Positions 675 through 28,903 of a DNA stretch of 64,000 nt are shown in pieces. This DNA is from an uncultured Bacteroidota bacterium. Lineage in GTDB: Bacteria > Bacteroidota > Bacteroidia > Bacteroidales > UBA10428. A program made the position numbers and the translations under genes. Location of the stretch: NCBI GenBank assembly GCA_963733535.1, contig CAVTDR010000006.1, positions 1,505,348 to 1,569,347 of the forward strand, in the 5' to 3' direction. The notes under the pieces were generated by a model. That model saw nothing but the letters and a program-made list of their open reading frames with translations, made no database searches and was not told the origin of the DNA. Positions within the stretch are counted from its first letter, which is position 1. Every line of letters starts with the position of its first letter.

Positions 675-1385
675 TTAGAATTCCCACCTTAAGCCTAGTG
701 TGGGTGAAAAAGCCCAATCAGCGGGACCGACAGGGAAATTTTTGCTTATTTCCACTTCGCTGCCCAAAGCTATTTTGGGCGTCAGTAAGAACCATAATTG
801 TGGTTCGGTTTGAAATATCCATTCTTTTTTATCCGGATGGATATATTTATCCTGCGACCAAATATCGGCAAATCCGGTAAGGAGTATTTTCCCGTTGAAT
901 AACGGTTGATACCATACCGCTGTAAACTGAAAATCTGCTGAACGGGTACCTCTTGCAATTCTGCACAACCATTGTGTTGTAAGTACAAATGAGCCCAAAT
1001 GAACCGGATGCGCGAAGCCTGTTAAAAATACACTGTTATAACTTGCTGCTCCGAGCGTATCTTTTGCAATTTCATATGCTGTAAAACCATCATTATATTC
1101 CAGGTGAAAGGTGAGCTCATCAAAAAAAGCGTGCTTTCTTAAACCCGGTATATAAAATTCCCGGGCAATTTCCCAATATGCAGCAGACATACTTCTTGGT
1201 TTTCCGGGTAAATTAAAATCAAAATCCACAAACCAGAATGTGGATCCCAGGGAGTCGGGCCTGAACATTTCGAGTGTAGCAGTGTAATGTCGGCGATCTT
1301 CTCCAAAATCATAATGCATCTGGAGGTTCTGTGACCATGTGACCAGCGGTATGAAGACAAAAACAAGGACAATTAATTTTTTCAT
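675..1385 (-). CDS. DUF5020-like (Tsx-like) outer-membrane beta-barrel protein
   Basis: The tracked ORF is 675..1418. The likely true start is the internal MKKLIVLVFVFIPLVTWSQ signal peptide at 1385. The protein ends ...LGLRWEF, a C-terminal Phe beta-signal, and the NLQMHYDFG motif matches what I recall for DUF5020. Confidence 0.6.
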   Translation of the reverse strand: MKKLIVLVFVFIPLVTWSQNLQMHYDFGEDRRHYTATLEMFRPDSLGSTFWFVDFDFNLPGKPRSMSAAYWEIAREFYIPGLRKHAFFDELTFHLEYNDGFTAYEIAKDTLGAASYNSVFLTGFAHPVHLGSFVLTTQWLCRIARGTRSADFQFTAVWYQPLFNGKILLTGFADIWSQDKYIHPDKKEWIFQTEPQLWFLLTPKIALGSEVEISKNFPVGPADWAFSPTLGLRWEF

Positions 1386-1559
1386 ATGCCGTTTTAAAGG
1401 AACGCCAAAAGTAAGCATTCTTAAAGTTTAAAGCACATAAAGATGGGAGAGTACGTAGGCCACTCTTAAAGCATCTTGCTGTTACATCGTGATTAAGAAC
1501 AACCTGGATTCTGTAAACCGAAAAAAATTTTAATACTTTTACAAAAATACGAAGTGAAT

Positions 1560-2276
1560 ATGAGCTATAGGCATACATTGGAAGCCGCAATTGAAGGCAT
1601 TCATGACATTGAGGAATTACTGACTCAATTTTCCAGACAGGAAAGTATTGCAGCAATAGAGATGGATCTCACCCTCCAGAAAATGAGAAATATTTACGAA
1701 TTGCTTCTGATGATGAAAGAAAAGCAGCCGGTAATGGATGTAAATCCTTCTATTGAGAAAGATCATGAGCCCGTAAAAAAGGTTATACGGCCTGCTGAAG
1801 CTGAATTTCCTGAAGTATCGGATTTGAAGGCAGCCGTTGAAGTGAAGGAAATTGTCATCAAAAAAGAGGACATCCCCGATGAAGTTCCGCAGACCATAGT
1901 CCCGCCAAAAGAGAGAAGGCGGCAGGCTGAAAAGCCCGGGCAAACGCTGGCTGATCAGTTTCTGTCAAAGCCTACCTTGCATGAATCACTTCATCAGAAT
2001 AACCGAAAGGATGAACCATATTTTACTCACAATAAACCCATTACTGACCTGGCTGCAGCTATAGGAATCAACGACAGGTTCACCTTTATTCATGAGCTGT
2101 TTGGTAATGATAAGAACTTGTATGATAACACCCTGATCACGCTGAATCAGGCACCCAGCTTTAATGATGCTTATAATTACATGATTCATAATTTTGATTG
2201 GGATATGAACAGTGAACCGGTGCAATTATTACTGGATATGGTTCGCAGGAAATTTATAAAAGGAAGGAATGAGTAA
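1560..2276 (+). CDS. Hypothetical conserved protein (helical N-terminus, acidic/Pro-rich linker, C-terminal domain)
   Basis: The tracked ORF starts at GTG 1554, with an ATG at 1560. The linker reads PVKKVIRPAEAEFPEVSDLKAAVEVKE...PPKERRRQAEKPG and the C-terminal block reads ITDLAAAIGINDRFTFIHELFGND. The 3' end overlaps the rsmI start by 8 nt. Confidence 0.55.
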   Translation: MSYRHTLEAAIEGIHDIEELLTQFSRQESIAAIEMDLTLQKMRNIYELLLMMKEKQPVMDVNPSIEKDHEPVKKVIRPAEAEFPEVSDLKAAVEVKEIVIKKEDIPDEVPQTIVPPKERRRQAEKPGQTLADQFLSKPTLHESLHQNNRKDEPYFTHNKPITDLAAAIGINDRFTFIHELFGNDKNLYDNTLITLNQAPSFNDAYNYMIHNFDWDMNSEPVQLLLDMVRRKFIKGRNE

Positions 2277-2937
2277 ACTCTATATTGTTCCAACACCTAT
2301 AGGGAATCTGGAAGATATTACCCTCAGAGCACTCAGGGTGCTAAAAGAAGTGCAGGTAGTGCTGGCAGAGGATACCCGTACAACCCGCAAACTTTTTGCA
2401 CATTATGAAATTCATACACCCCTGAGATCCTACCATATATTTAATGAGCATCAGAAAACGGATATGCTGGTTGAGGAAATTGCTTTCGGACAGGTAACTG
2501 CGCTGGTAAGCGACGCAGGTACGCCTTCCATATCTGATCCGGGTTTTATGCTGGTTAGAGCTTGCATTGAGAAGGGGATTCAGGTTGAATGCCTGCCCGG
2601 AGCTACTGCTTTGATTCCTGCTCTTGTAAATTCGGGTTTCCCCAGTGAGAAGTTCTGTTTTGAAGGTTTTCTTCCGCATAAAAAAGGAAGAAAAACAAAG
2701 CTGGAAGCACTGGTTCAGGAAACGCGAACAATTGTTTTGTATGAATCGCCGCACCGGATTTTGAAAACGTTGACTGAACTCAAGGCGGTAATGGGAAATG
2801 AGAGAAAATGTTGCGTTTGCAGAGAGCTATCCAAAATTCACGAAGAAGTCCTCCGGGGTACCTTCGATGAGGTGATCAGTGTTTTCAATAAAAAAGAACC
2901 CCGCGGAGAAATCGTCCTGGTTTTATCGGCATTATAA
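2269..2937 (+). CDS. rsmI: 16S rRNA (cytidine1402-2'-O)-methyltransferase RsmI
   Basis: The N-terminus is MSKLYIVPTPIGNLEDITLRALRVLKEV. The length (222 aa) and tetrapyrrole-methylase-type fold motifs are typical of RsmI. Confidence 0.9.
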   Translation: MSKLYIVPTPIGNLEDITLRALRVLKEVQVVLAEDTRTTRKLFAHYEIHTPLRSYHIFNEHQKTDMLVEEIAFGQVTALVSDAGTPSISDPGFMLVRACIEKGIQVECLPGATALIPALVNSGFPSEKFCFEGFLPHKKGRKTKLEALVQETRTIVLYESPHRILKTLTELKAVMGNERKCCVCRELSKIHEEVLRGTFDEVISVFNKKEPRGEIVLVLSAL

Positions 2938-2974
2938 TTGATTTTTTGGTTGTAATCCAAAAAAGGTTTATTTT

Positions 2975-2997
2975 TACAAACCGACCGTCGGTATGTA
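2975..2997. promoter_or_regulatory. Near-perfect 23-bp palindrome, candidate TetR operator
   Basis: The sequence TACAaACCGAC-C-GTCGGTaTGTA matches its reverse complement at 20 of 23 positions. It lies directly in front of the ATG (3000) of the TetR gene that heads the ABC exporter operon. Confidence 0.4.
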
Positions 2998-2999
2998 AA

Positions 3000-3581
3000 A
3001 TGAAGGAAAATAAAATCATACGAATCGAATCCATCATTGATGCTGCTATTTCAGAATTTTTAGAAAAGGGGTATGAAGGTGCTTCCATGGAAGGCATTGC
3101 AGTAAGGGCAAATTTAAGCAAGGGAGGATTATACCACCATTTCAAAAGTAAAAGTGAAATTTTGTATACAGTAAACGTGAAGTTTCAGGAGCCTGTGACA
3201 GAATTTATAAACCGGATGGTCATGCAAGGTTCTGTCATTGAATCATTGCTGGGTTTTGTTGAGGAATATCTGAATTACTGGAATCAGCACCGGCGCGAAC
3301 TCATGCTTTATTTTATAACCATGAATGAAGCACTGGGCAATCCTGTCATCTTAAAATTGTATAGGGATTCAACGCAAGAGACATTTGGTTTTTTCAGGGA
3401 ACAATTTGAGAAAGGCTGGCAACAGGGTGTTCTGAAAAATTGCGATGCTTATGCCCGTGCTGTTTCCATGATTTCATGCATGGATGGTTACCTGGGATAT
3501 TTACTGATTGATCCGGAATTGAAACCGGAACGGATCATACAGGAAATTCAATCGGTTTTTATTGGCAGTCTCATTAAATGA
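3000..3581 (+). CDS. TetR/AcrR family transcriptional regulator
   Basis: The tracked ORF is 2946..3581, and the likely start is MKENKIIRIESIIDAAISEFLEKGYEGASMEGIAVRANLSKGGLYHHFKSK. That stretch is the TetR-type N-terminal HTH. Confidence 0.85.
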   Translation: MKENKIIRIESIIDAAISEFLEKGYEGASMEGIAVRANLSKGGLYHHFKSKSEILYTVNVKFQEPVTEFINRMVMQGSVIESLLGFVEEYLNYWNQHRRELMLYFITMNEALGNPVILKLYRDSTQETFGFFREQFEKGWQQGVLKNCDAYARAVSMISCMDGYLGYLLIDPELKPERIIQEIQSVFIGSLIK

Positions 3582-4516
3582 ACCCTATGGAAGCAATGAT
3601 CGAAATTACAGGTCTGTGTAAGAAGTTCGGATCGCTAGTTGCCGTGAAAGAGTTAAATCTATCGGTATACAAAAATGAAATTTTTGGCCTGTTGGGGCCC
3701 AATGGTGCGGGCAAAACAACTGCAATTAATATGATATGCGGTCTAATCCCCAAGACAAGCGGCAAAGTATTGATTCATGGACGTGATGCGCGTTCGAATA
3801 AATGGCTTATGGGCTATTGTGCCCAGGAGAATATCATTTATCCCCGCCTGACTTGTATGGAACAACTGCAGTTTTTAGCCAGCATGTATGATATTCCACC
3901 ACGGAAAAGCCATGACCGGACCCTAAATGTATTATCAGCCCTTGGATTAAGCGAAAAGGCAAATGTAAAAGCAGAGGCTCTGTCGGGTGGTATGAAAAGA
4001 AGATTAAGCATTTGTCTTGCTATCATCCATGATCCGGAAATCCTGATTCTTGATGAGCCGGAAGCAGGACTTGATCCGCAAAGCAGAATCATGGTAAGAG
4101 ATTTTATCAAACAATTCAGTTCCGGCAAAACCGTAATTCTTACCACCCATAATATGGATGAAGCCGACAGAATGGCCGACCGTGTTGCAATTATGGATTA
4201 CGGGCAGATACTCATGACGGATACTCCTGAAAACCTGAAAAAAACAATTGGAGATGGTGATATGCTTGAGATGACTGCTGAAACAAAAGATGAAATACGC
4301 CTGAAAGAATTTACAGAGAAAATTTCACAATATGTTACCCTTATGCATACCCATTCCAGTCAGGTTTTAATAAAGGGCAAAAACCTGATAACGCTGATCC
4401 CTAAGATTCAAAAAACAGCCGAAGATGCCGGAATCCGTCTGATTGAAATTAAACTCAGACAAAATACCCTGGAAGATGTTTTCATTCATTTAACCGGAAG
4501 AAATCTCAGATCATGA
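3578..4516 (+). CDS. ABC transporter ATP-binding protein (ABC-2 exporter type)
   Basis: It carries Walker A GPNGAGKTT, signature LSGGMKRRL and Walker B ILILDEP. It overlaps the neighbouring genes by 4 nt on each side. Confidence 0.9.
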   Translation: MNPMEAMIEITGLCKKFGSLVAVKELNLSVYKNEIFGLLGPNGAGKTTAINMICGLIPKTSGKVLIHGRDARSNKWLMGYCAQENIIYPRLTCMEQLQFLASMYDIPPRKSHDRTLNVLSALGLSEKANVKAEALSGGMKRRLSICLAIIHDPEILILDEPEAGLDPQSRIMVRDFIKQFSSGKTVILTTHNMDEADRMADRVAIMDYGQILMTDTPENLKKTIGDGDMLEMTAETKDEIRLKEFTEKISQYVTLMHTHSSQVLIKGKNLITLIPKIQKTAEDAGIRLIEIKLRQNTLEDVFIHLTGRNLRS

Positions 4517-6340: not shown

Positions 6341-7384
6341 ATGAAATACCTGATTTTTTTCGTCATATTGATGAGCGGTCTCGCTTGTTATTCCCAGGCA
6401 AATTTTAAACCAGGCTTTATCATTTTGAATTCCCAAGATACGCTCAAGGGGCTCGTTGATTACCGGGGCGATTTACTGATGTGTTCGATATGTCGTTACC
6501 GCACTGCCACTAAAAAAGAAATTGTTGAATACAGACCTGGCGATATTTCGGGATATGGAGTTGAATCGGGCAGATTATATGCTTCGAAAATTATTGACAA
6601 CATCCCGGTTTTTTTGGAATGCCTGATAGATGGTAAGTTACGTATTTATTATTTAAGGTATGAAAACCGCGACCGCTATTTTATGGAGAAGGATGATCTT
6701 CAATTGGTTGAAATTCCATATAAAGAGGGCACTAAAGAATACAATGGAATGCAACACTTTTATTCAACTTCCACACACAAGGCTTTACTCTCCTTATATA
6801 CCAATGATGCTCCGCAACTAAAATCAAAAATTGATTCAATCCGTAAGCCCAATCAAAAAAATCTGATATCCATTGCTGAAACGTACCATAATGAAGTAAG
6901 CAGTAATGAGAAATACATAATTTACAAAAAGAAGTTCTCCATTAATGTAATGGTTGAGCCGGTTGTAGGAGTTACCAAATATTTGGTTCTTAATAGTTTT
7001 AATCCGGAATATGGGGCTCATCTTTATTTATGGTTACCCGAAGACAACGAAAAGTTATTTCTTAAAACAGGGGTCATTTATACGGAAATTTCAGATGGTG
7101 ATGAAGAGCTGAAAGTTTTCAAATTTCCCATTCAAATTCAATATATTTATCCGGGGAATAAGTTCCGTCCTATGGCTGCATTTGGATTGGAAATTCTGAG
7201 TGCCAAATATGAAAAATTCGATTTTGGAGGACACTGGCTTGTTCTGAATGCAGGTTTCAATTACAAAATCAGCGAGAGAACAGCATTGAGTGTTGCCTAT
7301 AGATTGGAAACTACACCTATATTGGTTGGTACATTTACCGTTGTTTCAAATTCTGTTTTTGCAGGATTGATGTTCCGGTTTTAA
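6341..7384 (+). CDS. Hypothetical secreted / outer-membrane protein
   Basis: The signal peptide is MKYLIFFVILMSGLACYSQ. The C-terminal third has alternating beta-strand character and ends ...VFAGLMFRF, an OMP-type terminal Phe. Confidence 0.5.
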   Translation: MKYLIFFVILMSGLACYSQANFKPGFIILNSQDTLKGLVDYRGDLLMCSICRYRTATKKEIVEYRPGDISGYGVESGRLYASKIIDNIPVFLECLIDGKLRIYYLRYENRDRYFMEKDDLQLVEIPYKEGTKEYNGMQHFYSTSTHKALLSLYTNDAPQLKSKIDSIRKPNQKNLISIAETYHNEVSSNEKYIIYKKKFSINVMVEPVVGVTKYLVLNSFNPEYGAHLYLWLPEDNEKLFLKTGVIYTEISDGDEELKVFKFPIQIQYIYPGNKFRPMAAFGLEILSAKYEKFDFGGHWLVLNAGFNYKISERTALSVAYRLETTPILVGTFTVVSNSVFAGLMFRF

Positions 7385-20654: not shown

Positions 20655-21719
20655 TTGAAAGAAAAAGTAATTAGCGGGATTCAGCAGATTGGTATCGGCG
20701 TGCCCAATGTACATGAGGCCTGGAAATGGTACAAACAAAATTTTGGAGTGGATATCCGGATGTTTGAGGATAATGCGGTGGCCGAACATATGCTTCCCTA
20801 TACAGGAGGTAAGCCTCAAAAGCGACATGCTGCTCTGGCGCTAAATTTGCAGGGTGGGGGAGGATTTGAAATCTGGCAATACGTGGAACGTACGCCATTA
20901 TCTGCGAAGTTTGAAATTCAACTGGGTGATCTGGGCATATTTGCTGCTAAAATAAAATGCCGCAATGCAAAGATTACCTATGACTTTTTAAAAAGCCAGG
21001 GTGTAAACATGCTTACCGGGATACTGAGAGATCCGAGGGGCAAAGAGCATTTCTATATAAAAGATCCTTATGGGAATATCTTCCAACTGGTAACCAGTGT
21101 AACCTGGTTTATTAATGAAAAAAAACCTACCGGAGCTGCTTATGGTGCAGTAATTGGGGTTTCTGACATCAATAAAGCGGCTGAATTTTATGCCAGCATA
21201 TTGGGATATGACCAGCGGATTTTTGATGAGACCGCCGTTTTTGGTGAATATGCCGGTTTATCTGGTGGGAATAACCGTTTTCGGAGAGTATTGCTAAGGC
21301 ACAGCAAACCACGTTTGGGTGCATTTAGTCCCCTTTTCGGAACCAGCGAAATTGAACTGGTTCAAGTGCTTGATCGGACGCCTCAGAAAATTTACCATGA
21401 GCGGTTCTGGGGTGATTTGGGTTTCATTCACTTGTGTTTTGATATCAATGGAATGGATTTATTGCGTGAAGAATGTAAACAAAAAGGTTGCCCCTTTACC
21501 GTAGATGTTGATCACAGCTTCGATATGGGTGAGGCCGCAGGATCTTTTGCATATACGGAAGATCCGGATGGTACGTTAATAGAATTTGTGGAAACGCACA
21601 AGATTCCAATACTTAAAAGTATCGGATGGTATCTGAATCTGAGAAAGAGAAAACCTGAAAAAGCGTTACCGCATTGGCTGCTTAAAGCCATATCATTTAA
21701 CAGGGCTAAAGATATATAA
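20655..21719 (+). CDS. VOC (glyoxalase/bleomycin-resistance/dioxygenase) family protein, duplicated domains
   Basis: The apparent start is TTG, with the first in-frame ATG 35 codons further in. Two VOC-like halves are visible: ISGIQQIGIGVPNVHEAWKWY... and AYGAVIGVSDINKAAEFYASILGY... Confidence 0.7.
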   Translation: MKEKVISGIQQIGIGVPNVHEAWKWYKQNFGVDIRMFEDNAVAEHMLPYTGGKPQKRHAALALNLQGGGGFEIWQYVERTPLSAKFEIQLGDLGIFAAKIKCRNAKITYDFLKSQGVNMLTGILRDPRGKEHFYIKDPYGNIFQLVTSVTWFINEKKPTGAAYGAVIGVSDINKAAEFYASILGYDQRIFDETAVFGEYAGLSGGNNRFRRVLLRHSKPRLGAFSPLFGTSEIELVQVLDRTPQKIYHERFWGDLGFIHLCFDINGMDLLREECKQKGCPFTVDVDHSFDMGEAAGSFAYTEDPDGTLIEFVETHKIPILKSIGWYLNLRKRKPEKALPHWLLKAISFNRAKDI

Positions 21720-21798
21720 GCCCCGGGAGACAATGGAAAACGGATAAACTAAATAAGAAAAGAAGGTTTGTCTTCCCGGGACTGTTTCAGAGCGGTTA

Positions 21799-24700
21799 TT
21801 ATTTTGGAATTGTATTATATCTGCCCGTTGCATGCATATATGCTCTTATTTTTATGCGATAACGGGCTTTGGCTTCTGTAAGTGTATCTTTTGCCTGATA
21901 AAGAAGTGTCTGAGCTTCGAGCATATCCGAGATATTGATCATGCCTGACTGAAAATTATCACGGTTGATTTTCAGATTTTCTTGTGCCTGGCCCACTGTT
22001 TCAAGAGCAACATCAATTTCCATCCAGGCTTCATTCAGTTCATTCCATTCTTTTTCGATTTTCAGTACCAGCAATTCAGTATTATTTTTGCAGTTGTTGC
22101 TGACGATTTCCTCTTTGAGTTTTCGTTCTTTGATTGAATGTAACCCTTCCCACCAGTCAGATATTGGTATTGATACCGTGCCAAAGACCATACTGTTGGT
22201 TGTTCCTTTATCTGCGATATTATAATAGAGGGCTCCAACTCCAATTCCTGCTTCAGGCATGTATTCTCCGGTTTTAATACGTGTTCGTAATTTTTCAGCC
22301 TGGACACTCGTTTGCAACAACTTGTATTCTTCCAGATTATCAATGGCATTTGAGGCAGCAATATAGAAATCTCCAGGCTGTTTTTCAATCATCAGTGAAT
22401 CGGTGCATACCATGGTACTGTCATACGGAATTCCCATAAATTGACAAAAAGCCATGGAAGACAAGCGGATGCCATTTTCAAGTTTCAATTGATTACTTTT
22501 TATCTCACTCTTTTTCAAGGTAACCCTGAGAACTTCGTTCCGGTTAATAAGTCCTGCTTTCCATGCATCGAAAGCTTCATTATATATGCTGTCCAATAAT
22601 TGCATGGATACTGCCATCGTTTGCCGCTTTTCATAAAGTGACACGATCCTCCAGTATTGCTCTTCAGTATTGAGAACGATCTGATTTTCCGAAAGAATGC
22701 GTTGACTTTCGCTTGCATTTACACCAAGCCCTGCAAGTTTATTTCCGCTCATGATTCTTCCTCCGGCAAAAACAGGTTGCACCGCGGTGATCGAGCCTAG
22801 ATTTCCCTTATCAATCATGGATAAAGAAAACCCTGGGAAATAGGCAAATTGTGTTGGATGAAGAAGATTAACCGGATTGCCGTCATATACCGGCAGATTT
22901 CCACCTGGAATATCCAGCTTTACAAGAGGTTCATTAAAGCGATATATAATTCCGGTAGCAGTGATTGAAGGAAAGTACTTTGTAAATGCAGCTTTTTTTA
23001 TTTGACTTGCAGCCTGAACGTCCAACGTGGCGTTCCTCACCTGAATGTTATTGGATAGAGCCAATGATTGGCAGTGTTCCAATGTATAAGCCGGCTGTGC
23101 ATAAATGCCTTCAATGGCACACCCTAAGAATACCATAACGACAATAGTTCGTAAAAGTAAAGCCGATTTTTGAAGACCCGTTCCTTTGATTTTTGAATCA
23201 GCACGTCTGCAAATCATCCAATAGGCAACAGGCAGAATGAGTACCAGTAGAATCATCGAAGACAATGTACCAAAGCAGATTACGGCGCCCATTGGACTCC
23301 ATAGCGGATTTGCATTGACAATCATGGGAATAACACCTACCGATGCAGCTGCAGAAGTCAGGAAAATGGGTCGCATTCTTCTTTTTCCAGCTTCCATTGC
23401 AGCCTCTTTTACACTCAGGTTGTGCTTTTTGCGAATTTCTTCAGCATAATCCAGCATGATAATGCCATTTCTAACGAGGATACCTATCAGACTGACAATA
23501 CCTAAAATGGCTGTAATTCCAAATTCAGCTTTTAATATGATAATTCCCAGAAAGGCACCTAAAAGACTCAGAGATGATGCACTTAGAACAAGAAGGGCGA
23601 GTGCTATTTTTCTGAAATGAAGCAGAAGAATTATGAAAACAATAAATATGGCAATGATCAAGCCTGCAATAATATTTGGAACGTTTTCCTCATCCAATTC
23701 ATAGGATCCTCCATAGGAAATAAGAATATCCGATGGTATCTGCATGTTGTGGACCTTTGCTTCAACTGCGGAAAATACTTCCTGTACCTTATACCCGCGT
23801 TCAATATCAGCCATAAGGGTAAGCGTATGCATTCCGTTCCTCCGGACAATCTGATCTTGTGTCCAATCTGCCGATACAGTGGCTATTTGACGCAAAGGCA
23901 CAGATATACCCGGAATAAGTGAATGAATATATTCATCATAGATATTCTGGTCGTTTTCTTCAGATTCGGTTTTCAACACAACACTTAGCGGATAATCATT
24001 TTCCCACATGGTAGTAACCGGCAAGCCCTCATAACGGATGGCCAGATTTGTGGCCACTGATGTTTTATTGATTCCTAACCGGCTGGCTTCAGTAGCATTC
24101 AAATTTATTCTGAGAGATGGCTGCATTTCACCAAAGTCACTCCTTACCCAATCAATTCCTTTTATATGCTGTAATTGAGGAAGCAAAGAATCACTGATGA
24201 TCTTGAGCGATTTCAATGAATCACATGAAATTCTGACCTCAATAGGAGCAGCTATCGGCTGGTAATCAAGTTCTTTAAATCGTATATGGGCATTCGGAAA
24301 ATAGTCACCATAGATTTTTGAATAATCATCCAGCAAATCAACCGTTGCTGATTCCGAAATGGTATTTACAATAAACTGGGCATAATTTTTAGACGGGACT
24401 TTGGGGGCATAGGTAGTATGGAAACGGGGTGAGCTTGTTCCCACAAAAGAAGTAATGGATGTGATGCGCGGATCTTCTGATAACATGTGTTGCAGACTAT
24501 CTGAAACCAGCGCTGTGCTTTTAAGTGAACTGCCCTGGGGTAGATAAATTTCAATGGCAAATTGATTGCGTTCAGCTACAGGCAATAACCGCTGCGGAAC
24601 TTTAAAAAACAAGGCAATAGCACATAAAACAGAAAATAGTCCGATGCCGATCGTAAACCGTGGATAGGCAAATGCTTTAAGCAAATACTTTTCATAAAGA

Positions 24701-26253
24701 TTCTGAATGGAATTTAATACGTTAAAATGGTTTTTAATTTTCTTTTCAGCATTCAAGTACCCTTTTTTGATAAAATAATATTGCATAAAGGGAATAACCA
24801 TCATGGCAACGAGCAATGAAATTCCAAGTGTAAGCGTTACCGTCCATGGAAACATTTCCACAAAATCTTTAAATGTACCTTTCAGTGTGAAAAGAAAGGG
24901 TAGAAATGTGATGCTGATTGCCAGGGTAGCGGAAAATATGGCTTTAAAGTATATTCTGGCACTGGATATGGCAGCATACCAACGGGAAACACCCTGATCC
25001 AGCTTTTCCATATAACTATCTACGATGACTATGGAGTTATCAACGATCATTCCGAGCACTACAATCAAAGCCGCCAATGTCACAGTATTCAGTTCAATAC
25101 CGATAACATACATCAGTCCGAGAGAAATAAATATCGTAACCGGAATAGAAGAAGCAGCCACTGATGCTACACGTAGTGGTAGAAGCAACATGGTAACAAC
25201 AATTACAGAAAGAATGGCAAAGAAAAGTTCAAGCATAAAACCTGATACCGCATTTTTAACAACAAAAGGCTGATCGGCAATCCGCTTTATGGTAATGCCT
25301 TCAGGAAGCGACTTTTTAAAATCATTAAGTACTTCATTAACTTCTTCCCCGAATTGTACAATGTTATTGCCTTCCAACATTTCCATTGATATGAGCAGGC
25401 ATTTATGGGCATTGTTTTGTATGTAACTATCGGGGTCGGGATATTCTCTGATCACCGTGGCAATATCTTTCACACGCACCATGTTCCCCAAAGGGTCGGA
25501 ATAAATAATTTGTTCTGCCAGATCATCCTGGGTCTTATAGGGCGTGGTGATAATAACCGGAGATTCAATAGCGCCATAATCTACAGAAGCTCCGGCAGTT
25601 GTAAGCCCTTGTGCAAACAGGCCCGCCGTAATGATGGTGCTATTGAGACTATATTTCTCTAATTTTGCCTTGTCCAGGCAGATACTAATTTGCTCATGTT
25701 GCAGGCCAAAATGTCTGACTTTCGAAACCGATTCAATCCTCCTTAACCGGTCTTCAAGGCGGTATAAATAGGTTTCAAGATCGCGGTATGACATGTGATC
25801 CGCCTCCAATGAAATAAGCAATGCTGAAGTGTCTCCAAAATCATTGTCGGCATATAAAGCCAGGACTCCGGCAGGCAATTTGGACTTAAAGGTAATCAGA
25901 CCATGTTTTAACTTCGACCAAAATTCATCAGCATTCTTTACCTTATCATTCAATTCTACAAAAATGATCATCAAACCATTTTTGGAATAGGAGTAGGTTT
26001 TCTTTTTATTGATTTCTTTAAAGCTGAATAAATAGCGTTCGACTTCAGTGGTCAGTTGTTCATCGATCTGGTTTGAAGTTGCCCCGGGATATGCCGCTAT
26101 AACAAGTCCCTGTCGAATAGTAACGGTAGGGAACTCCTGACGCGGCATTTTCTTAAGCGCAAAGAAACCGAGGATAACCAGAAACACAACACTTAAAAAG
26201 ACAATCTGCCTGTTTTTCATAGCAGATTCTACAAAGGAAATTTTTTTACTCAT
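21799..26253 (-). CDS. RND efflux permease fused in-frame to a TolC-like outer-membrane factor (1484 aa)
   Basis: The frame is a single uninterrupted ORF. Residues 1 to about 1012 form a full AcrB-type architecture ending with TM12 (...GTLSSMILLVLILPVAYWMI). Residues 1013-1052 are signal-peptide-like. Residues 1053-1484 form a full TolC/OEP protein (QPAYTLEHCQSLALSNNIQVRNA...). The 5' end overlaps the MFP gene by 4 nt. Confidence 0.85.
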   Translation of the reverse strand: MSKKISFVESAMKNRQIVFLSVVFLVILGFFALKKMPRQEFPTVTIRQGLVIAAYPGATSNQIDEQLTTEVERYLFSFKEINKKKTYSYSKNGLMIIFVELNDKVKNADEFWSKLKHGLITFKSKLPAGVLALYADNDFGDTSALLISLEADHMSYRDLETYLYRLEDRLRRIESVSKVRHFGLQHEQISICLDKAKLEKYSLNSTIITAGLFAQGLTTAGASVDYGAIESPVIITTPYKTQDDLAEQIIYSDPLGNMVRVKDIATVIREYPDPDSYIQNNAHKCLLISMEMLEGNNIVQFGEEVNEVLNDFKKSLPEGITIKRIADQPFVVKNAVSGFMLELFFAILSVIVVTMLLLPLRVASVAASSIPVTIFISLGLMYVIGIELNTVTLAALIVVLGMIVDNSIVIVDSYMEKLDQGVSRWYAAISSARIYFKAIFSATLAISITFLPFLFTLKGTFKDFVEMFPWTVTLTLGISLLVAMMVIPFMQYYFIKKGYLNAEKKIKNHFNVLNSIQNLYEKYLLKAFAYPRFTIGIGLFSVLCAIALFFKVPQRLLPVAERNQFAIEIYLPQGSSLKSTALVSDSLQHMLSEDPRITSITSFVGTSSPRFHTTYAPKVPSKNYAQFIVNTISESATVDLLDDYSKIYGDYFPNAHIRFKELDYQPIAAPIEVRISCDSLKSLKIISDSLLPQLQHIKGIDWVRSDFGEMQPSLRINLNATEASRLGINKTSVATNLAIRYEGLPVTTMWENDYPLSVVLKTESEENDQNIYDEYIHSLIPGISVPLRQIATVSADWTQDQIVRRNGMHTLTLMADIERGYKVQEVFSAVEAKVHNMQIPSDILISYGGSYELDEENVPNIIAGLIIAIFIVFIILLLHFRKIALALLVLSASSLSLLGAFLGIIILKAEFGITAILGIVSLIGILVRNGIIMLDYAEEIRKKHNLSVKEAAMEAGKRRMRPIFLTSAAASVGVIPMIVNANPLWSPMGAVICFGTLSSMILLVLILPVAYWMICRRADSKIKGTGLQKSALLLRTIVVMVFLGCAIEGIYAQPAYTLEHCQSLALSNNIQVRNATLDVQAASQIKKAAFTKYFPSITATGIIYRFNEPLVKLDIPGGNLPVYDGNPVNLLHPTQFAYFPGFSLSMIDKGNLGSITAVQPVFAGGRIMSGNKLAGLGVNASESQRILSENQIVLNTEEQYWRIVSLYEKRQTMAVSMQLLDSIYNEAFDAWKAGLINRNEVLRVTLKKSEIKSNQLKLENGIRLSSMAFCQFMGIPYDSTMVCTDSLMIEKQPGDFYIAASNAIDNLEEYKLLQTSVQAEKLRTRIKTGEYMPEAGIGVGALYYNIADKGTTNSMVFGTVSIPISDWWEGLHSIKERKLKEEIVSNNCKNNTELLVLKIEKEWNELNEAWMEIDVALETVGQAQENLKINRDNFQSGMINISDMLEAQTLLYQAKDTLTEAKARYRIKIRAYMHATGRYNTIPK

Positions 26254-27299
26254 AAGGATCTTGAAAATGAAACAGGGCTGTTTTCGCTTAATTTATGATA
26301 GCCTTCAATAATCACATGATCGCCGATTTGAAGTCCTTCGGTAATTTCAATATCTCCATGAGATGATACAGAACCGATAATTACATTTCTTCTTATCGCT
26401 TTATTTAGTATGGTGTCTGCTATAAATACATACTTTTTCCCATCATTACCGGACAATACCGATTGTTGCGGAACACGAATTACAGTATTTTTATCAATTT
26501 GATCTATCGCCACATAGCAAACCATGCCCGGACGCATGGAAAAATCCGAATTACGAACTGCAATTTTAACTTCATAGGTATGGGAGAATGGATTCGCTAT
26601 AACACCTTTGTATTCAACTGTACCGGTATATATGGCATTATTCAGTGCTCCGACTTTCAGGGTTACTTTCTGGCCGGTTTTCAAACTGTTGATTTCGTTT
26701 TCAGGCACGGGTATTTTTACGAATACCTTGTCAATATTTACCAGTGTGATTATTGTTATCCCCGGTGCAATATTAGCACCGGGTTCAATCATCCGTTTAC
26801 CCACAATAGCACTTACCGGTGACACCAGATTGCAATCGCTGAGGTTTTTTTGGGCAAGCAAAGCCATGGCATGCGCCTGTTGCAAAGCAGTTTCGATCTC
26901 TACCATTTTTATCTCGGGCAAACTACCGTTTTTATAAACTTCTGAAAGACGGTTGTATGCATCCTGAGCCTGTCTTTCTTTCGCTGATGCTATTTCCAAA
27001 GCGTTTTTGTAGCTATAGTTGTCAAGACGGGCAAGAATCTGACCTTTTTGCACAGTCTGCCCTTCGTCTATAAATACTTTTTCGACGGTTCCGGAAGTAA
27101 GAAAACTCATGGGTATCGATTGGGATTCTTCGACAGTTCCAATATATCTTTCAGAAATATTGTCTGTTGAAGCGGATACCGCAAGAGTTCTTACCGGAGT
27201 AGCTGTTTGAACCGGCCCGACAACTTCATTATTTTTTGCACAACCGCTAACAATTATGAACAAAAATGCAGGTCCGAGTAAATGATGCAAAACATTCAT
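26250..27299 (-). CDS. Efflux RND transporter periplasmic adaptor (MFP/HlyD family) lipoprotein
   Basis: It has the lipobox FIIVSGC. Biotinyl-lipoyl-like and beta-barrel segments (GTVEKVFIDEGQTVQKGQILARLD) are typical of MFPs. Confidence 0.85.
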   Translation of the reverse strand: MNVLHHLLGPAFLFIIVSGCAKNNEVVGPVQTATPVRTLAVSASTDNISERYIGTVEESQSIPMSFLTSGTVEKVFIDEGQTVQKGQILARLDNYSYKNALEIASAKERQAQDAYNRLSEVYKNGSLPEIKMVEIETALQQAHAMALLAQKNLSDCNLVSPVSAIVGKRMIEPGANIAPGITIITLVNIDKVFVKIPVPENEINSLKTGQKVTLKVGALNNAIYTGTVEYKGVIANPFSHTYEVKIAVRNSDFSMRPGMVCYVAIDQIDKNTVIRVPQQSVLSGNDGKKYVFIADTILNKAIRRNVIIGSVSSHGDIEITEGLQIGDHVIIEGYHKLSENSPVSFSRSL

Positions 27300-27322
27300 A
27301 TGAGAAACATTTATAATGAAAA

Positions 27323-27949
27323 CTAGAAGAACAGGGTTACGCCAAAAAGAGCTGATTTATTACGGTCGTCAGAGGCTGATGACATTACCCTGGCAAATCC
27401 TTGTGAATACCTGAAACCGATCTGCATCACATGATTCCCTGCAGGCACCTGGATTCCGCCGCCAATGGTGTATCCACCATCTGTTGAATGGATATCATTA
27501 TTAAAATTCTCGCTATCCGTATGTTCTCCTGTAGCAGCTACTGCATTTTCAGCGTATGTTTTAAATCCGGCATAAAATCCTGCCAGACCATACAGTCTTG
27601 TATTTCCGCTTGCAGGTATAGACGCTTCGGCCAATAGAGGAATGGTAATATAATTGTACATGCCGGTGATTTTTTGCTCACCATTGCTTACATCCTGTTT
27701 TTTACGAAACCCTTTTTGTTCGTATATTATTCCGGATTGCAATCCCCAGGAAGGATTAATGGTATATCGAAAGGCGATGCCTCCACCAAAACCGGTTTTC
27801 AGCGCTTCATTATCATAAAAATTTCCGGGTTCGGATAAGGTGGATACAGTGAGTCCCGAAATTACCCCTGCCTCGATTCTTTTCTGACCATAAAACGGAA
27901 GTGTATTTATAATGGTCAAGATAAAAACAATCATCATTTTACTTTTCAT
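27323..27949 (-). CDS. Small outer-membrane beta-barrel (porin-family/OmpA-barrel-like) protein
   Basis: The tracked ORF is 27323..28030. The likely start is MKSKMMIVFILTIINTLPFYGQ at 27949. It has an alternating beta-strand pattern and ends ...FGVTLFF. Confidence 0.6.
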   Translation of the reverse strand: MKSKMMIVFILTIINTLPFYGQKRIEAGVISGLTVSTLSEPGNFYDNEALKTGFGGGIAFRYTINPSWGLQSGIIYEQKGFRKKQDVSNGEQKITGMYNYITIPLLAEASIPASGNTRLYGLAGFYAGFKTYAENAVAATGEHTDSENFNNDIHSTDGGYTIGGGIQVPAGNHVMQIGFRYSQGFARVMSSASDDRNKSALFGVTLFF

Positions 27950-28036
27950 CACACTGTTTATTAAATTGTTATTAAAACTATCTTTATGAATAATTCGACC
28001 AAAAACGTAGAATGGTCGAAATATGTACAAAAAATT

Positions 28037-28621
28037 TTATTTCTTCATAATGCCGTAAAAAAGAACATTTAACAGGCTTTCCAATTGATTTTCAGCATAT
28101 TTTCTTTTGCTTGACCAGAACATGGGGACTTCTATTCCTTTCAGGGCAGTAAAAATGGCAATAGCAGCAAGTTCTGTATCCTCAATACGAAAATCGCCCA
28201 ATGCAACACCTTCATCCAGAATATCCTGGAGCATGTGAATTTCTTTCAGATCGTATTTGTTCCTGATTTTCTCAATAAAATCAAAGTGACTATAGGCTTC
28301 CGACTGGATTACAGAATAGAAATTGGAAACCTTTCTGAAGGTTTTCATGCGGGTTAGCACATAGGCTTTCAATTTATCAGCAGAATTATTAAGCCGGGAC
28401 AACGCCTTAATTACCTCCTGACGTAAAAATTCAGCTTCAAATTCTAGTACAGCCTGATAAATTTCTTCTTTGCTTTTGAAATAATAATAGATAGAACTTT
28501 TCCCTTTGCCGAGCGATTGGGCAATTTCGTCCATGGTAGCCTTTTTATAGCCAAACTTATCGAAAATGCTTCGGGAAGCTTCGATAATCTGATCTCTTAT
28601 ATCGTTTTTATCAACGGACAT
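28037..28621 (-). CDS. TetR/AcrR family transcriptional regulator
   Basis: The N-terminal HTH is IIEASRSIFDKFGYKKATMDEIAQSLGKGKSSIYYYFKSKEEI. It is the first gene of the efflux operon. Confidence 0.85.
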   Translation of the reverse strand: MSVDKNDIRDQIIEASRSIFDKFGYKKATMDEIAQSLGKGKSSIYYYFKSKEEIYQAVLEFEAEFLRQEVIKALSRLNNSADKLKAYVLTRMKTFRKVSNFYSVIQSEAYSHFDFIEKIRNKYDLKEIHMLQDILDEGVALGDFRIEDTELAAIAIFTALKGIEVPMFWSSKRKYAENQLESLLNVLFYGIMKK

Positions 28622-28638
28622 TTATCTATTCGACTAAA

Positions 28639-28661
28639 ATACTTTAACGGTCCAAAAGTAT
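28639..28661 (-). promoter_or_regulatory. Candidate promoter -7 box overlapped by an inverted repeat (possible TetR operator)
   Basis: On the minus strand, TACTTTTG (plus 28653-28660) fits TAnnTTTG and lies 32 nt upstream of the TetR ATG. The inverted repeat ATACTTT-N9-AAAGTAT (28639-28661) spans it. Confidence 0.4.
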
Positions 28662-28743
28662 AAACAATTTTTCACTCAACAAAGTATTTCATAAAATATT
28701 TTTCGTATGATCGAATTAATTGTTCGAAAAGTACACTGACTGC

Positions 28744-28799
28744 TGATTGGTGATTGGTATTCGGTATTCGGTATTCGGTATTCGATATTCGGTGTTTGG
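28744..28799. repeat. Tandem heptanucleotide array, 8 units (TGATTGG x2, TATTCGG x3, TATTCGA, TATTCGG, TGTTTGG)
   Basis: I read the units directly. They start at 28744, 28751, 28758, 28765, 28772, 28779, 28786 and 28793. Confidence 0.95.
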
Positions 28800-28820
28800 T
28801 TCCTTTTTGACATTTACCAT

Positions 28821-28903
28821 ACCGTTTACTGATTACCGTTTACTGATTACCGTTTACTGATTACCGTTTACTGATTACCGTTTACTGATTACTGATTACT
28901 GAT
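28821..28903. repeat. Tandem 14-mer array (ACCGTTTACTGATT x5) followed by two extra ACTGAT(T) half-units
   Basis: I read five perfect 14-nt copies at 28821-28890, then ACTGATT (28891-28897) and ACTGAT (28898-28903). The array starts 23 nt downstream of the GT9 gene stop on the minus strand. Confidence 0.95.

Follow-up and report, generated by a model that had tools for sequence, protein, structure and literature searches.

A fused RND permease and outer-membrane channel of Bacteroidota, predicted to be a polyprotein with an internal signal peptide

Introduction

How could a single polypeptide supply both the pump of the inner membrane and the channel of the outer membrane? This question is raised by a gene in which an RND permease is followed, within one open reading frame, by an outer-membrane channel protein (OMF). 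The gene lies in a stretch of 64,000 nucleotides from an uncultured Bacteroidota bacterium of the order Bacteroidales (hereafter the window), whose numbering is used throughout, and all the features located below are on its minus strand. Tripartite efflux pumps have a central part in intrinsic drug resistance, and to our knowledge their biogenesis has always been described as that of three proteins made separately. NCBI gives such genes just the name “efflux RND transporter permease subunit”, an annotation that would hide an outer-membrane channel; channels hidden in this way would affect the counts of TolC-like proteins and the resistome surveys of gut and environmental Bacteroidota. A first-pass annotation of this DNA had read the segment joining the two halves as resembling a signal peptide, and had proposed either a polyprotein cleaved by signal peptidase or an OMF gene nested in frame. 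Here, these readings are weighed against the comparative evidence.

Two complete domains in one reading frame

The open reading frame (21799..26253, 1484 amino acids plus the stop codon) encodes an RND permease::OMF fusion, predicted to be a polyprotein precursor. The presence of both domains, already stated in the first-pass annotation, was confirmed, and each of them is complete. ACR_tran (PF00873) covers residues 9-1014 and positions 3-1020 of the 1021 of its profile (E=2.9e-146), and OEP (PF02321) matches in two stretches, reaching residue 1477 (E=3.2e-44). Therefore, the linker segment is located exactly between two complete domains. The RND domain (residues 1-1012; 23218..26253) is also recognised by the NCBIfam model RND_permease_2, and its score is below the cut-offs of those specific NCBIfam subfamily or equivalog models that matched. 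By hydropathy, it displays the 12 canonical helices, along with a pair of large periplasmic loops (305 and 308 amino acids). Its last helix, TM12 (23227..23283), corresponds to residues 991-1009 by hydropathy and to residues 986-1014 in the AlphaFold2 model, and its end is predicted to face the cytoplasm, as expected for the C-terminus of a protein with 12 helices. A loop of 22 residues with 5 Lys/Arg follows, and then a 13th hydrophobic segment at residues 1032-1050 (KD 2.15), the additional membrane segment suggested previously.

The predicted mature OMF comprises residues 1053-1484 (432 amino acids; 21802..23097). When the OMF half was compared as a single sequence with the PDB sequences by phmmer, no match reached E<=1e-5, and its fold was then assigned using AlphaFold2 and Foldseek, in addition to the OEP match. 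The AlphaFold2 model, which is that of a monomer, contains the helices H1 (1058-1068) and H2 (1070-1092), the strand S1 (1098-1106), and long helices of 67 and 69 residues. The best Foldseek matches are TolC, ST50, OprM, VceC, and CusC; the leading ones have target-normalised TM-scores of 0.63-0.74, and TolC (1ek9) has 0.73. As modelled, the OMF half is a complete protomer of the TolC fold, in which two OEP repeats provide 4 strands and long coiled helices.

Gene neighbourhood and distribution of the fusion

A gene for a periplasmic adaptor (MFP) lipoprotein (26250..27299; TIGR01730 RND_mfp, E=2.7e-57; N-terminus ...IIVSGC↓A, the arrow marking the cut) precedes the fusion, and its stop codon overlaps the ATG of the fusion (ATGA overlap). 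An MFP gene is found directly upstream in 76 of 79 related loci. A TetR-family regulator (28037..28621; Pfam TetR_N) heads the cluster, and a TetR homologue was detected in 21 of 46 fused loci, mostly just upstream of the MFP gene. The locus thus has the adaptor next to the pump, as a tripartite RND efflux system does.

The split relatives carry the OMF gene right behind the RND gene, sometimes in frame, so a single error, such as a lost stop codon or a mistake of assembly or sequencing, could join the two genes into a nonfunctional product and mimic a fusion. However, the 120 best homologues, which range from 93% down to 46% identity, are all fused, with about 1480 amino acids and both ACR_tran and OEP. 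One open reading frame spans the junction in about 45 of the 79 species-level genome loci, among them that of the isolate Prolixibacter bellariivorans ATCC BAA-1284; across the junction, the best locus from a species-representative genome has 62% identity. The matches also include fused proteins named to Maribellus maritimus and Paludibacter jiangxiensis, neither of them flagged as a metagenome bin, and the identical protein is present on an independently assembled contig. Moreover, both halves are conserved near the junction (72% and 58% identity). The fused homologues, the isolate genomes, and the independent assembly refute an artefact or a pseudogene, to which we assign a negligible probability, and show that the fusion is genuine; it is also under selection. 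Judging from the database sequences, RND::OMF fusions are indeed common in Bacteroidota. The remark of the first-pass annotation that such an arrangement would be unusual for efflux systems must therefore be divided: we found no description of a natural RND-OMF fusion in the literature searched, including a Chem Rev 2021 review of tripartite pumps and a survey of 76 families of outer-membrane pore proteins, but among the Bacteroidota in the databases the fusion is not rare.

Signal-peptide features of the linker

The linker consists of 40 residues, 1013-1052 (MICRRADSKIKGTGLQKSALLLRTIVVMVFLGCAIEGIYA), followed by QP, exactly as first read. Its span is 23098-23217; the end at 23217 given in the first-pass annotation was correct, whereas its start at 23097 is already one base into the Gln codon (Met1013 is ATG at 23217..23215, Ala1052 is GCA at 23100-23098, and Gln1053 is CAG at 23097-23095). 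Three parts can be distinguished. The putative n-region, or cytoplasmic loop (residues 1013-1029, MICRRADSKIKGTGLQK; 23167..23217), contains 5 Lys/Arg and includes the in-frame ATG at 23217. The h-region (residues 1030-1047, SALLLRTIVVMVFLGCAI; 23113..23166), delimited by hydropathy and by an AlphaFold2 helix at 1030-1050, is proposed to be a transient 13th helix. The c-region EGIYA (residues 1048-1052; 23098..23112) has Ile at -3 and Ala at -1, and leads to the predicted signal peptidase I site Ala1052↓Gln1053 (GCA↓CAG; 23095..23100). The Sec pattern proposed earlier, a basic n-region and a hydrophobic core ending in IYA, thus holds, with its 5 basic residues and acceptable -3 and -1 positions, and it recurs in the 119 homologues. 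Some traits of the query depart from the standard form: its hydrophobic core is broken by Arg1036, IYA is less canonical than the family norm xSA or xQA, and the signal begins only at residue 1013, behind 12 transmembrane helices, rather than at the classical N-terminal location. The AlphaFold2 model is uninformative on the linker, as pLDDT is below 50 at residues 1019-1033 and 1047-1051, and the position that it gives the linker helix with respect to the pump is unreliable (pLDDT about 50), so it offers no ground for an AcrZ-like docking of the retained helix on the pump.

A rule-based (-3,-1) scan of the whole protein, although crude, retrieved a single site, 1052↓1053, when Gln was required at +1; without this requirement it is not specific, since it gave 7 sites, 6 of them in RND helices. 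In the alignment of the linkers of 119 fused homologues with the query, the identity to the query is 19%, compared with 72% and 58% for the flanks. Nevertheless, the n-region has a median net charge of +5, Ala occupies -1 in 104/119 homologues (Ala, Ser, or Gly in 115/119), and Leu, Ala, Val, Thr, Ser, or Ile is found at -3 in 113/119. Gln is present at +1 in 116/119, while Pro at -5 (45/119) and Ser at -6 (57/119) are less general. Of the 118 homologues put through the strict scan, 30 break one rule. The spacing between the last charge and the cut site is also constant (median 18 residues, IQR 18-18; 17 in the query), and 18 residues leave room for a hydrophobic core of about 12. An ordinary h-region has about 7-15 residues and is followed by a polar c-region of about 5-6; a core of about 12 is thus usual for a signal that is cleaved, whereas an anchor held stably in the membrane tends to be longer. 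The linker therefore appears to retain the form of a signal peptide while its sequence diverges. This pattern exceeds chance, given the sole site with Gln at +1 and the same form in 119 homologues despite the low conservation of the linker. The Gln at +1 agrees with the Q-rule that describes signal peptidase I substrates in Bacteroidetes; in P. gingivalis, over 60% of the predicted substrates carry it (PMC5837995). A small OMP of the same gene cluster also ends ...FYG↓Q.

The closest known counterparts of the fusion are the split MFP-RND-OMF operons of Bacteroidota, represented by BmeABC of B. fragilis (PMC8277102) and by the relatives L012-L078 and L086. They resemble the query in their three components, in gene order, in the MFP gene directly upstream, and in their homologous RND and OMF proteins. 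In the split relatives, the OMF gene directly follows the RND gene. Free OMFs of 427-460 amino acids share up to 47% identity with the OMF half; their signal peptide (about 20 residues at the N-terminus), of the signal peptidase I type, aligns on the linker core and ends A↓Q in the same register, 2-4 residues ahead of a shared [YL][ST]L[ED]xC motif. In contrast to the split operons, the query has neither a stop codon after the RND half nor a start codon for the OMF, and the OMF signal is internal, after 12 helices and a basic loop. The linker probably descends from the signal peptide that began an OMF when this still had its own gene.

Competing explanations

The OMF could also be translated alone from the in-frame ATG at 23217 (Met1013), as a precursor of 472 amino acids (the length calculated in the first-pass annotation, which is correct), whose signal peptide would be cleaved normally, the fused frame being incidental. 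An ATG is indeed present there, and the precursor made from it would begin with a plausible signal peptide whose n-region is long. In addition, a Met is found exactly 20 residues before the cut site in 30/119 homologues, probably the old OMF start, and internal initiation may occur in some lineages. In the query, however, this old start position is a Leu (CTT). The column of Met1013 is Leu in 82/119 homologues, including the 81%-identical relative P0002, and Met in only 15/119, while 59/119 have no Met at all between the RND end and the hydrophobic core. The start context is also poor: the ATG has a single A in positions -15 to -1, where 29 ORF starts of the window have at least 3 and a median of 6 (a weak test), and a T at -3, where an A favours initiation in Bacteroidetes (PMC6847099). 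A scan of 21600-28900 for sigma-70-type promoters and terminators found no site near the junction, although such a scan is uninformative for Bacteroidetes promoters and gave 19 promoter-like sites versus 23 in shuffled sequence. Separate translation from this ATG, with its poor conservation and context, is therefore very improbable. Even with internal initiation the polyprotein would be made, because ribosomes completing the RND half read on through.

Two further possibilities accept the fused product and differ in the fate of the linker. Signal peptidase II could cut before Cys1045 (FLG↓C), leaving a lipid on the N-terminus of the OMF, as in the OprM/NodT type. OMFs that carry a lipid are known (PDB 4y1k, palmitoylated OprM), the 93% relative has FFGC where the query has FLGC, and a few homologues present better lipoboxes (e.g. 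SGC in P0011 and LGC in P0054). Nevertheless, only 5/119 homologues have a Cys in the hydrophobic region or c-region and the 81% relative has LVIGGA, while almost all have A↓Q. For a lipobox, Phe at -3 and Leu at -2 also compare poorly with the canonical VSGC of the adjacent MFP, and Arg1036 stands 10 residues ahead of the Cys, a position that would break the classical PROSITE lipobox pattern. The loose lipobox noted in the first-pass annotation is thus not sustained by the family, and we consider this route very improbable. The same very low probability is given to a fusion that is never cut, in which the linker would be a permanent 13th transmembrane anchor and the OMF half would work while covalently joined to the pump. 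Cleavage is indeed deduced from sequence, and the hydrophobicity of the segment suffices for a helix to be called, but its core is short, with only 18 residues between the last charge and the cut site, and a simple anchor would make no use of the residues conserved at -3, -1, and +1. The split relatives, moreover, make a free OMF with the same mature N-terminus. The geometry of the model points in the same direction: H1 of the complete TolC fold begins only about 5 residues after the cut site, and H2 (23 residues) runs straight into the barrel strand S1. In the TolC and AcrAB-TolC structures, the N-terminus of the OMF is more than 100 Å from the inner membrane, and therefore an uncut tether of about 5 residues cannot span the periplasm.

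Proposed maturation and its parallels

Our preferred explanation, which we hold to be likely, is that the fusion is a polyprotein cleaved by signal peptidase I at Ala1052↓Gln1053, with the linker as an internal Sec-type signal peptide. We infer export, cleavage, and pyroglutamate formation from the observed sequence features, their conservation, the equivalence to the free OMFs, and the completeness of both domains; the export of the OMF half and its release after IYA, as first suggested, find strong comparative support. The RND half would insert with its 12 helices, its end staying in the cytoplasm, and the basic loop 1013-1029 would remain inside the cell. The short core 1030-1047 would then enter SecYEG in the N-in/C-out orientation and initiate the export of the 432-residue OMF half. 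Signal peptidase I would cut behind Ala1052, leaving Gln1053 as the new N-terminus, probably cyclised to pyroglutamate as in other exported proteins of Bacteroidetes. The freed OMF would proceed to the outer membrane and trimerise, presumably into the 12-strand barrel of the TolC family, whereas the signal peptide would be retained on the RND pump as a C-terminal tail of 40 residues. The product would be an ordinary MFP-RND-OMF tripartite pump, with its inner- and outer-membrane parts derived 1:1 from one polyprotein.

Extending this to the family, we lean, with some reserve, towards the view that in a large clade of Bacteroidota the RND pump and its channel are made only as one polyprotein, resolved by signal peptidase I at an internal signal after 12 helices, the channel having no start of its own and the signal being retained as a short 13th helix. 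We know of no earlier natural case of one bacterial precursor supplying integral proteins to both membranes, nor of an earlier polyprotein route for a tripartite efflux pump. Natural bacterial precedents for signal peptidase I acting after 12 helices are few, and FbcH is the one known to us. This cytochrome b/c1 polyprotein of Bradyrhizobium japonicum, worked on by Thony-Meyer et al. in about 1989-1991, is reportedly separated by signal peptidase at an internal signal peptide. As in the query, the upstream partner of the fusion is a polytopic protein of the inner membrane and the downstream partner is exported, although both FbcH products belong to one inner-membrane complex, the downstream product of the query would go to the other membrane, and the families are unrelated. 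In the polyproteins of flaviviruses, pestiviruses, and HCV, internal signals after membrane spans direct translocation and the host signal peptidase cuts, giving equimolar products; these are, however, viral proteins processed at the eukaryotic ER, while the query belongs to a bacterial chromosomal efflux operon.

Other parallels are partial. The Rieske protein of Streptomyces has an internal signal peptide after transmembrane helices and uses the Tat pathway (PMC13186574). There too, an internal signal in a polytopic membrane protein exports a C-terminal domain, but through Tat rather than Sec, and this domain is not reported to be cleaved in that study (PMC13186574) and stays in the same protein. 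The SecDF of Thermus thermophilus is a fusion within the RND superfamily (PMC8277102), and similarly places two partner membrane components of an RND-superfamily machine on one polypeptide; its two halves are both in the inner membrane, in contrast to those of the query, and cleavage is not needed.

If the polyprotein explanation is true, the ratio of pump to channel would be fixed at 1:1, fitting the 3:3 stoichiometry of the assembled complex. The fusion would also represent a natural bacterial case of signal peptidase I acting on an internal signal behind a large polytopic domain, and a handy system to follow the handover of a Sec substrate from inner-membrane insertion to the outer-membrane assembly pathway.

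Fused and split relatives

On a neighbour-joining tree built from the RND part, the fused and split states have to change into each other at least 6 times, which suggests that the two forms are functionally interchangeable. Their apparent interconversion, several times over, provides natural matched pairs for comparison. In the split genome loci, the OMF open reading frame shares the frame of the RND open reading frame in 33/33 cases. We considered whether this conserved frame could be a sign of stop-codon readthrough or of very recent fission, and rejected it as a selection artefact, because the 33 loci were ranked by tblastn with a query spanning the junction, a ranking that puts loci in frame at an advantage. 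When free OMFs were sampled without this bias, one shared the frame of the RND gene and three did not, overlapping it by 4 or 8 nt.

Structure and distribution of the RND–OMF fusion

The minus-strand ORF 21799..26253 encodes a protein of 1484 aa in which an RND permease is joined to an outer membrane factor (OMF). Pfam ACR_tran covers residues 9-1014 (profile positions 3-1020 of 1021, E=2.9e-146) and OEP matches in two stretches reaching residue 1477, with concordant NCBIfam assignments; by these limits, the RND permease and the OMF are both complete, and a 40-residue linker exactly fills the space between them. In translation, residues 1013-1052 read MICRRADSKIKGTGLQKSALLLRTIVVMVFLGCAIEGIYA, then QP. 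The codon of Met1013 is the in-frame ATG at 23217-23215 (minus strand), that of Ala1052 is GCA at 23100-23098 and that of Gln1053 is CAG at 23097-23095, which places the linker where the first-pass annotation had it, to within one base. Kyte-Doolittle hydropathy recovers the textbook RND layout (TM1, a 305-aa loop, TM2-7, a 308-aa loop, TM8-12) and a 13th hydrophobic segment at residues 1032-1050, preceded by a 22-residue loop holding five Lys/Arg. Because twelve helices leave the RND C-terminus in the cytoplasm, this segment would span the membrane from inside to outside, in agreement with the orientation already proposed for it.

The fusion belongs to a minus-strand cluster of four genes, together with a TetR regulator (28037-28621), a small beta-barrel OMP (27323-28030, probable start Met at 27949; 208 aa, PF13568) and a periplasmic adaptor (MFP) lipoprotein (26250-27299; N-terminus ...IIVSGC/A), whose stop shares an ATGA overlap with the ATG of the fusion. 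The small OMP gene, whose product carries a signal peptide ending ...FYG/Q, is flanked by the TetR and MFP genes; tblastn retrieved no homologue of it in 80 related loci, and it looks like a local insertion in the operon rather than a part of the conserved system.

The best 120 database homologues are all of ~1450-1505 aa with ACR_tran and OEP, at 46-93% identity, with three partial fragments among them (P0007, P0030, P0098). JGI often names them 'AcrB/TolC' and NCBI only 'efflux RND transporter permease subunit'; the RND-OMF architecture is already visible in databases through the JGI names. A species scan with a junction-spanning alignment, using one genome per species, returned 80 loci, ~45 of them with an uninterrupted ORF over the junction. 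Among the carriers of fused loci are the isolate Prolixibacter bellariivorans ATCC BAA-1284 and metagenome bins classified as Paludibacter, Draconibacterium, Mariniphaga, Breznakibacter, Rikenellaceae, Paludibacteraceae and Prolixibacteraceae, while Prevotella and Bacteroidaceae bins are the source of more distant fused forms. The identical 1484-aa protein, in the same TetR-OMP-MFP-fusion order, was found on an independently assembled 8-kb metagenome contig. This contig and the fused homologues exclude an assembly error or a recent pseudogene.

Two fused homologues with linkers ending ...A/Q carry labels outside Bacteroidota, namely L025 (a Candidatus Delongbacteria MAG) and L052 (a Syntrophothermus-labelled MAG); contamination of the bin may explain the Syntrophothermus (Firmicutes) label. 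In L066 (a Prolixibacteraceae MAG), the fused ORF ends 264 residues past the RRMRPIFLT motif although the locus runs on, and this may be a truncated or frameshifted copy.

Conserved features of the linker

In an alignment of 119 fused proteins, the linker measures 34-47 residues from the conserved Trp1012 to the conserved Gln1053. Its identity to the query is 19%, whereas the final 113 residues of the RND part reach 72% and the initial 113 of the OMF part 58%. The linker nevertheless keeps the form of a signal peptide: the n-region has a median net charge of +5, the -1 position is Ala in 104/119 (Ala, Ser or Gly in 115/119), 113/119 have Leu, Ala, Val, Thr, Ser or Ile at -3, 45 carry Pro at -5, 57 carry Ser at -6, and Gln occupies +1 in 116. 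The last charged residue precedes the cut site by a median of 18 residues (interquartile range 18-18; 17 in the query). Once a c-region of 5-6 residues is taken off, the hydrophobic core, which contains Arg1036 in the query, is ~12 residues long, a usual length for signal peptides that are cleaved, but a short one for an anchor held stably in the membrane. The Gln at +1 fits the Q-rule of Bacteroidetes, as does the ...FYG/Q of the small OMP encoded next to the MFP gene; in P. gingivalis, Gln is the exposed residue of more than 60% of predicted signal peptidase I substrates and subsequently undergoes cyclisation to pyroglutamate (PMC5837995).

A crude scan by rules, run over the full length of the query, gave seven sites under the generic (-3,-1) rule, which is therefore unspecific alone; requiring Gln at +1 left a single site, 1052/1053. 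Under strict rules, the linker zone matched in 88 of 118 homologues, with four matches elsewhere in total. The signal-peptide pattern noticed in the first-pass annotation is conserved in form, and the comparative evidence strongly favours the release of the OMF by cutting after IYA, which it also proposed.

Some fused homologues have a much longer junction: L050 has ~40 additional Gln/Ala/Pro-rich residues past the apparent A/Q site, and the n-regions of L072 and L080 are 40-80 residues longer. Therefore, linker length is not always constrained.

Origin of the linker and relation to split loci

An exhaustive, profile-free search with residues 1013-1484 retrieved many stand-alone OMFs of 427-460 aa (identity up to 47%), which align to the hydrophobic core of the linker from their residue ~14-20 on. 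Their N-termini are ordinary signal peptides of ~20 residues, e.g., MKILNKILLTILLLDTGTVFA/QRTLTLEECKALALQNN, and their A/Q lies 2-4 residues ahead of the motif [YL][ST]L[ED]xCKxLALxNN, which also follows the linker of the fusion. The OMF gene directly follows the RND gene in 33 split genome loci; in an unbiased example, L086, the MFP gene is followed by RND at 918-4004 and OMF from 4001. From this alignment and adjacency, the linker consists, at the sequence level, of the RND cytoplasmic tail, a short stretch that was once spacer, and the signal peptide of the OMF itself. In 30/119 fused proteins, a Met lies exactly 20 residues ahead of the cut site (motif MKP, then the hydrophobic core), probably a start codon left over from the time when the OMF gene stood alone; at this position, the query carries Leu (CTT).

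Fused and split forms are interleaved, with at least six state changes by parsimony on a neighbor-joining tree of the RND part (L001-L080), built without support values from a biased sample. Our results suggest repeated gene fusion or fission, and functional interchangeability of the two forms.

Split loci that are in frame are over-represented in the species-genome sample. The OMF ORF is in frame with the upstream RND ORF in 33/33 split loci (L012-L078), with the junction near locus position 6400-6500 and spacers of 3-129 nt containing several stops. Among four unbiased free OMFs used as controls (L083-L086), only one is in frame and the other three overlap by 4 or 8 nt; the frame conservation was therefore rejected as a genuine signal and attributed to ranking by the junction-spanning tblastn query.

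Alternative readings of the linker

ALTERNATIVES raised by the first-pass annotation were a nested gene, with the OMF translated from its own start at ATG 23217, and a lipoprotein signal at FLGC. The evidence is against the nested gene; some internal initiation may occur, but the family does not depend on it. The Met1013 column, part of the conserved Y-W-[LM]-I-F stretch that closes the RND domain, is Leu in 82/119 homologues and Met in only 15; moreover, 59/119 lack any Met from the RND end up to the hydrophobic core, so that in half of the family no precursor starting at an ATG could have an intact signal peptide. The start context is also poor: ATG 23217 has one A at -15 to -1, against a median of six (minimum three) for 29 long-ORF starts in the window, and a T at -3, where A promotes initiation in Bacteroidetes (PMC6847099). 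The evidence likewise speaks against the lipobox: no more than 5/119 homologues carry Cys in either the hydrophobic or the c-region, the 81% relative has LVIGGA, and the residues at -3 and -2 of FLGC are atypical.

Predicted structure and proposed maturation

AlphaFold2 was applied to residues 881-1484 (43 homologues, mean pLDDT 81). TM12 is a helix at 986-1014, the n-region 1019-1033 (pLDDT <50) and the c-region 1047-1051 are disordered, and a helix at 1030-1050 has low confidence. The OMF half is modelled as a canonical protomer, with H1 at 1058-1068, H2 at 1070-1092, strand S1 at 1098-1106, two long helices (67 and 69 residues) and four barrel strands; Foldseek, searching the PDB, matches it to TolC (1ek9, target-normalised TM-score 0.73), ST50, OprM, VceC, CusC, CmeC and MtrE. 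H1 begins ~5 residues after the proposed cut site, and the 23-residue H2 (~35 A) leads straight into the outer-membrane barrel. In TolC and AcrAB-TolC structures, the OMF N-terminus is found at the equatorial domain, with the inner membrane well over 100 A away. An uncut tether of a few residues cannot bridge that distance, so the OMF would have to be released.

We consider it likely that the fusion is a polyprotein with an internal export signal, cut by signal peptidase I at Ala1052/Gln1053. The evidence from sequence, conservation, homology and fold is observed, and from SecYEG entry onward we infer the steps. The RND half would be inserted co-translationally and the basic loop kept in the cytoplasm, while the core would enter SecYEG with its N-terminus in and C-terminus out, acting as the export signal of the 432-aa OMF half. 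After cleavage at Ala1052/Gln1053, Gln1053 would probably be cyclised to pyroglutamate, the OMF would reach the outer membrane and trimerise, and the signal peptide would stay on the pump as a 40-residue C-terminal tail. A plausible benefit is that pump and channel are made 1:1; the two assemble 3:3. The function is that of an ordinary tripartite MFP-RND-OMF pump, with the same parts as in split Bacteroidota operons; its encoding and maturation are unusual.

The open-access literature searched yielded no account of a natural RND-OMF fusion or its maturation, although absence there is not proof. Among the closest precedents are, besides the split operons, the B. japonicum FbcH cytochrome b/c1 polyprotein, reportedly cleaved at an internal signal peptide, and viral polyproteins, likewise processed by signal peptidase. 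These also include the Streptomyces Rieske protein, with an internal Tat signal that is not reported to be cleaved (PMC13186574), and SecDF fusions (PMC8277102).

Within the OMF half, barrel strands S1 and S2 are separated by a long and strongly conserved insertion at residues ~1102-1155 (window ~22788-22950, minus strand; IPGGNLPVYDGNPxNL...TQFAYFPG; pLDDT ~55-66), common to fused and free relatives. TolC has only a short extracellular loop at this position.
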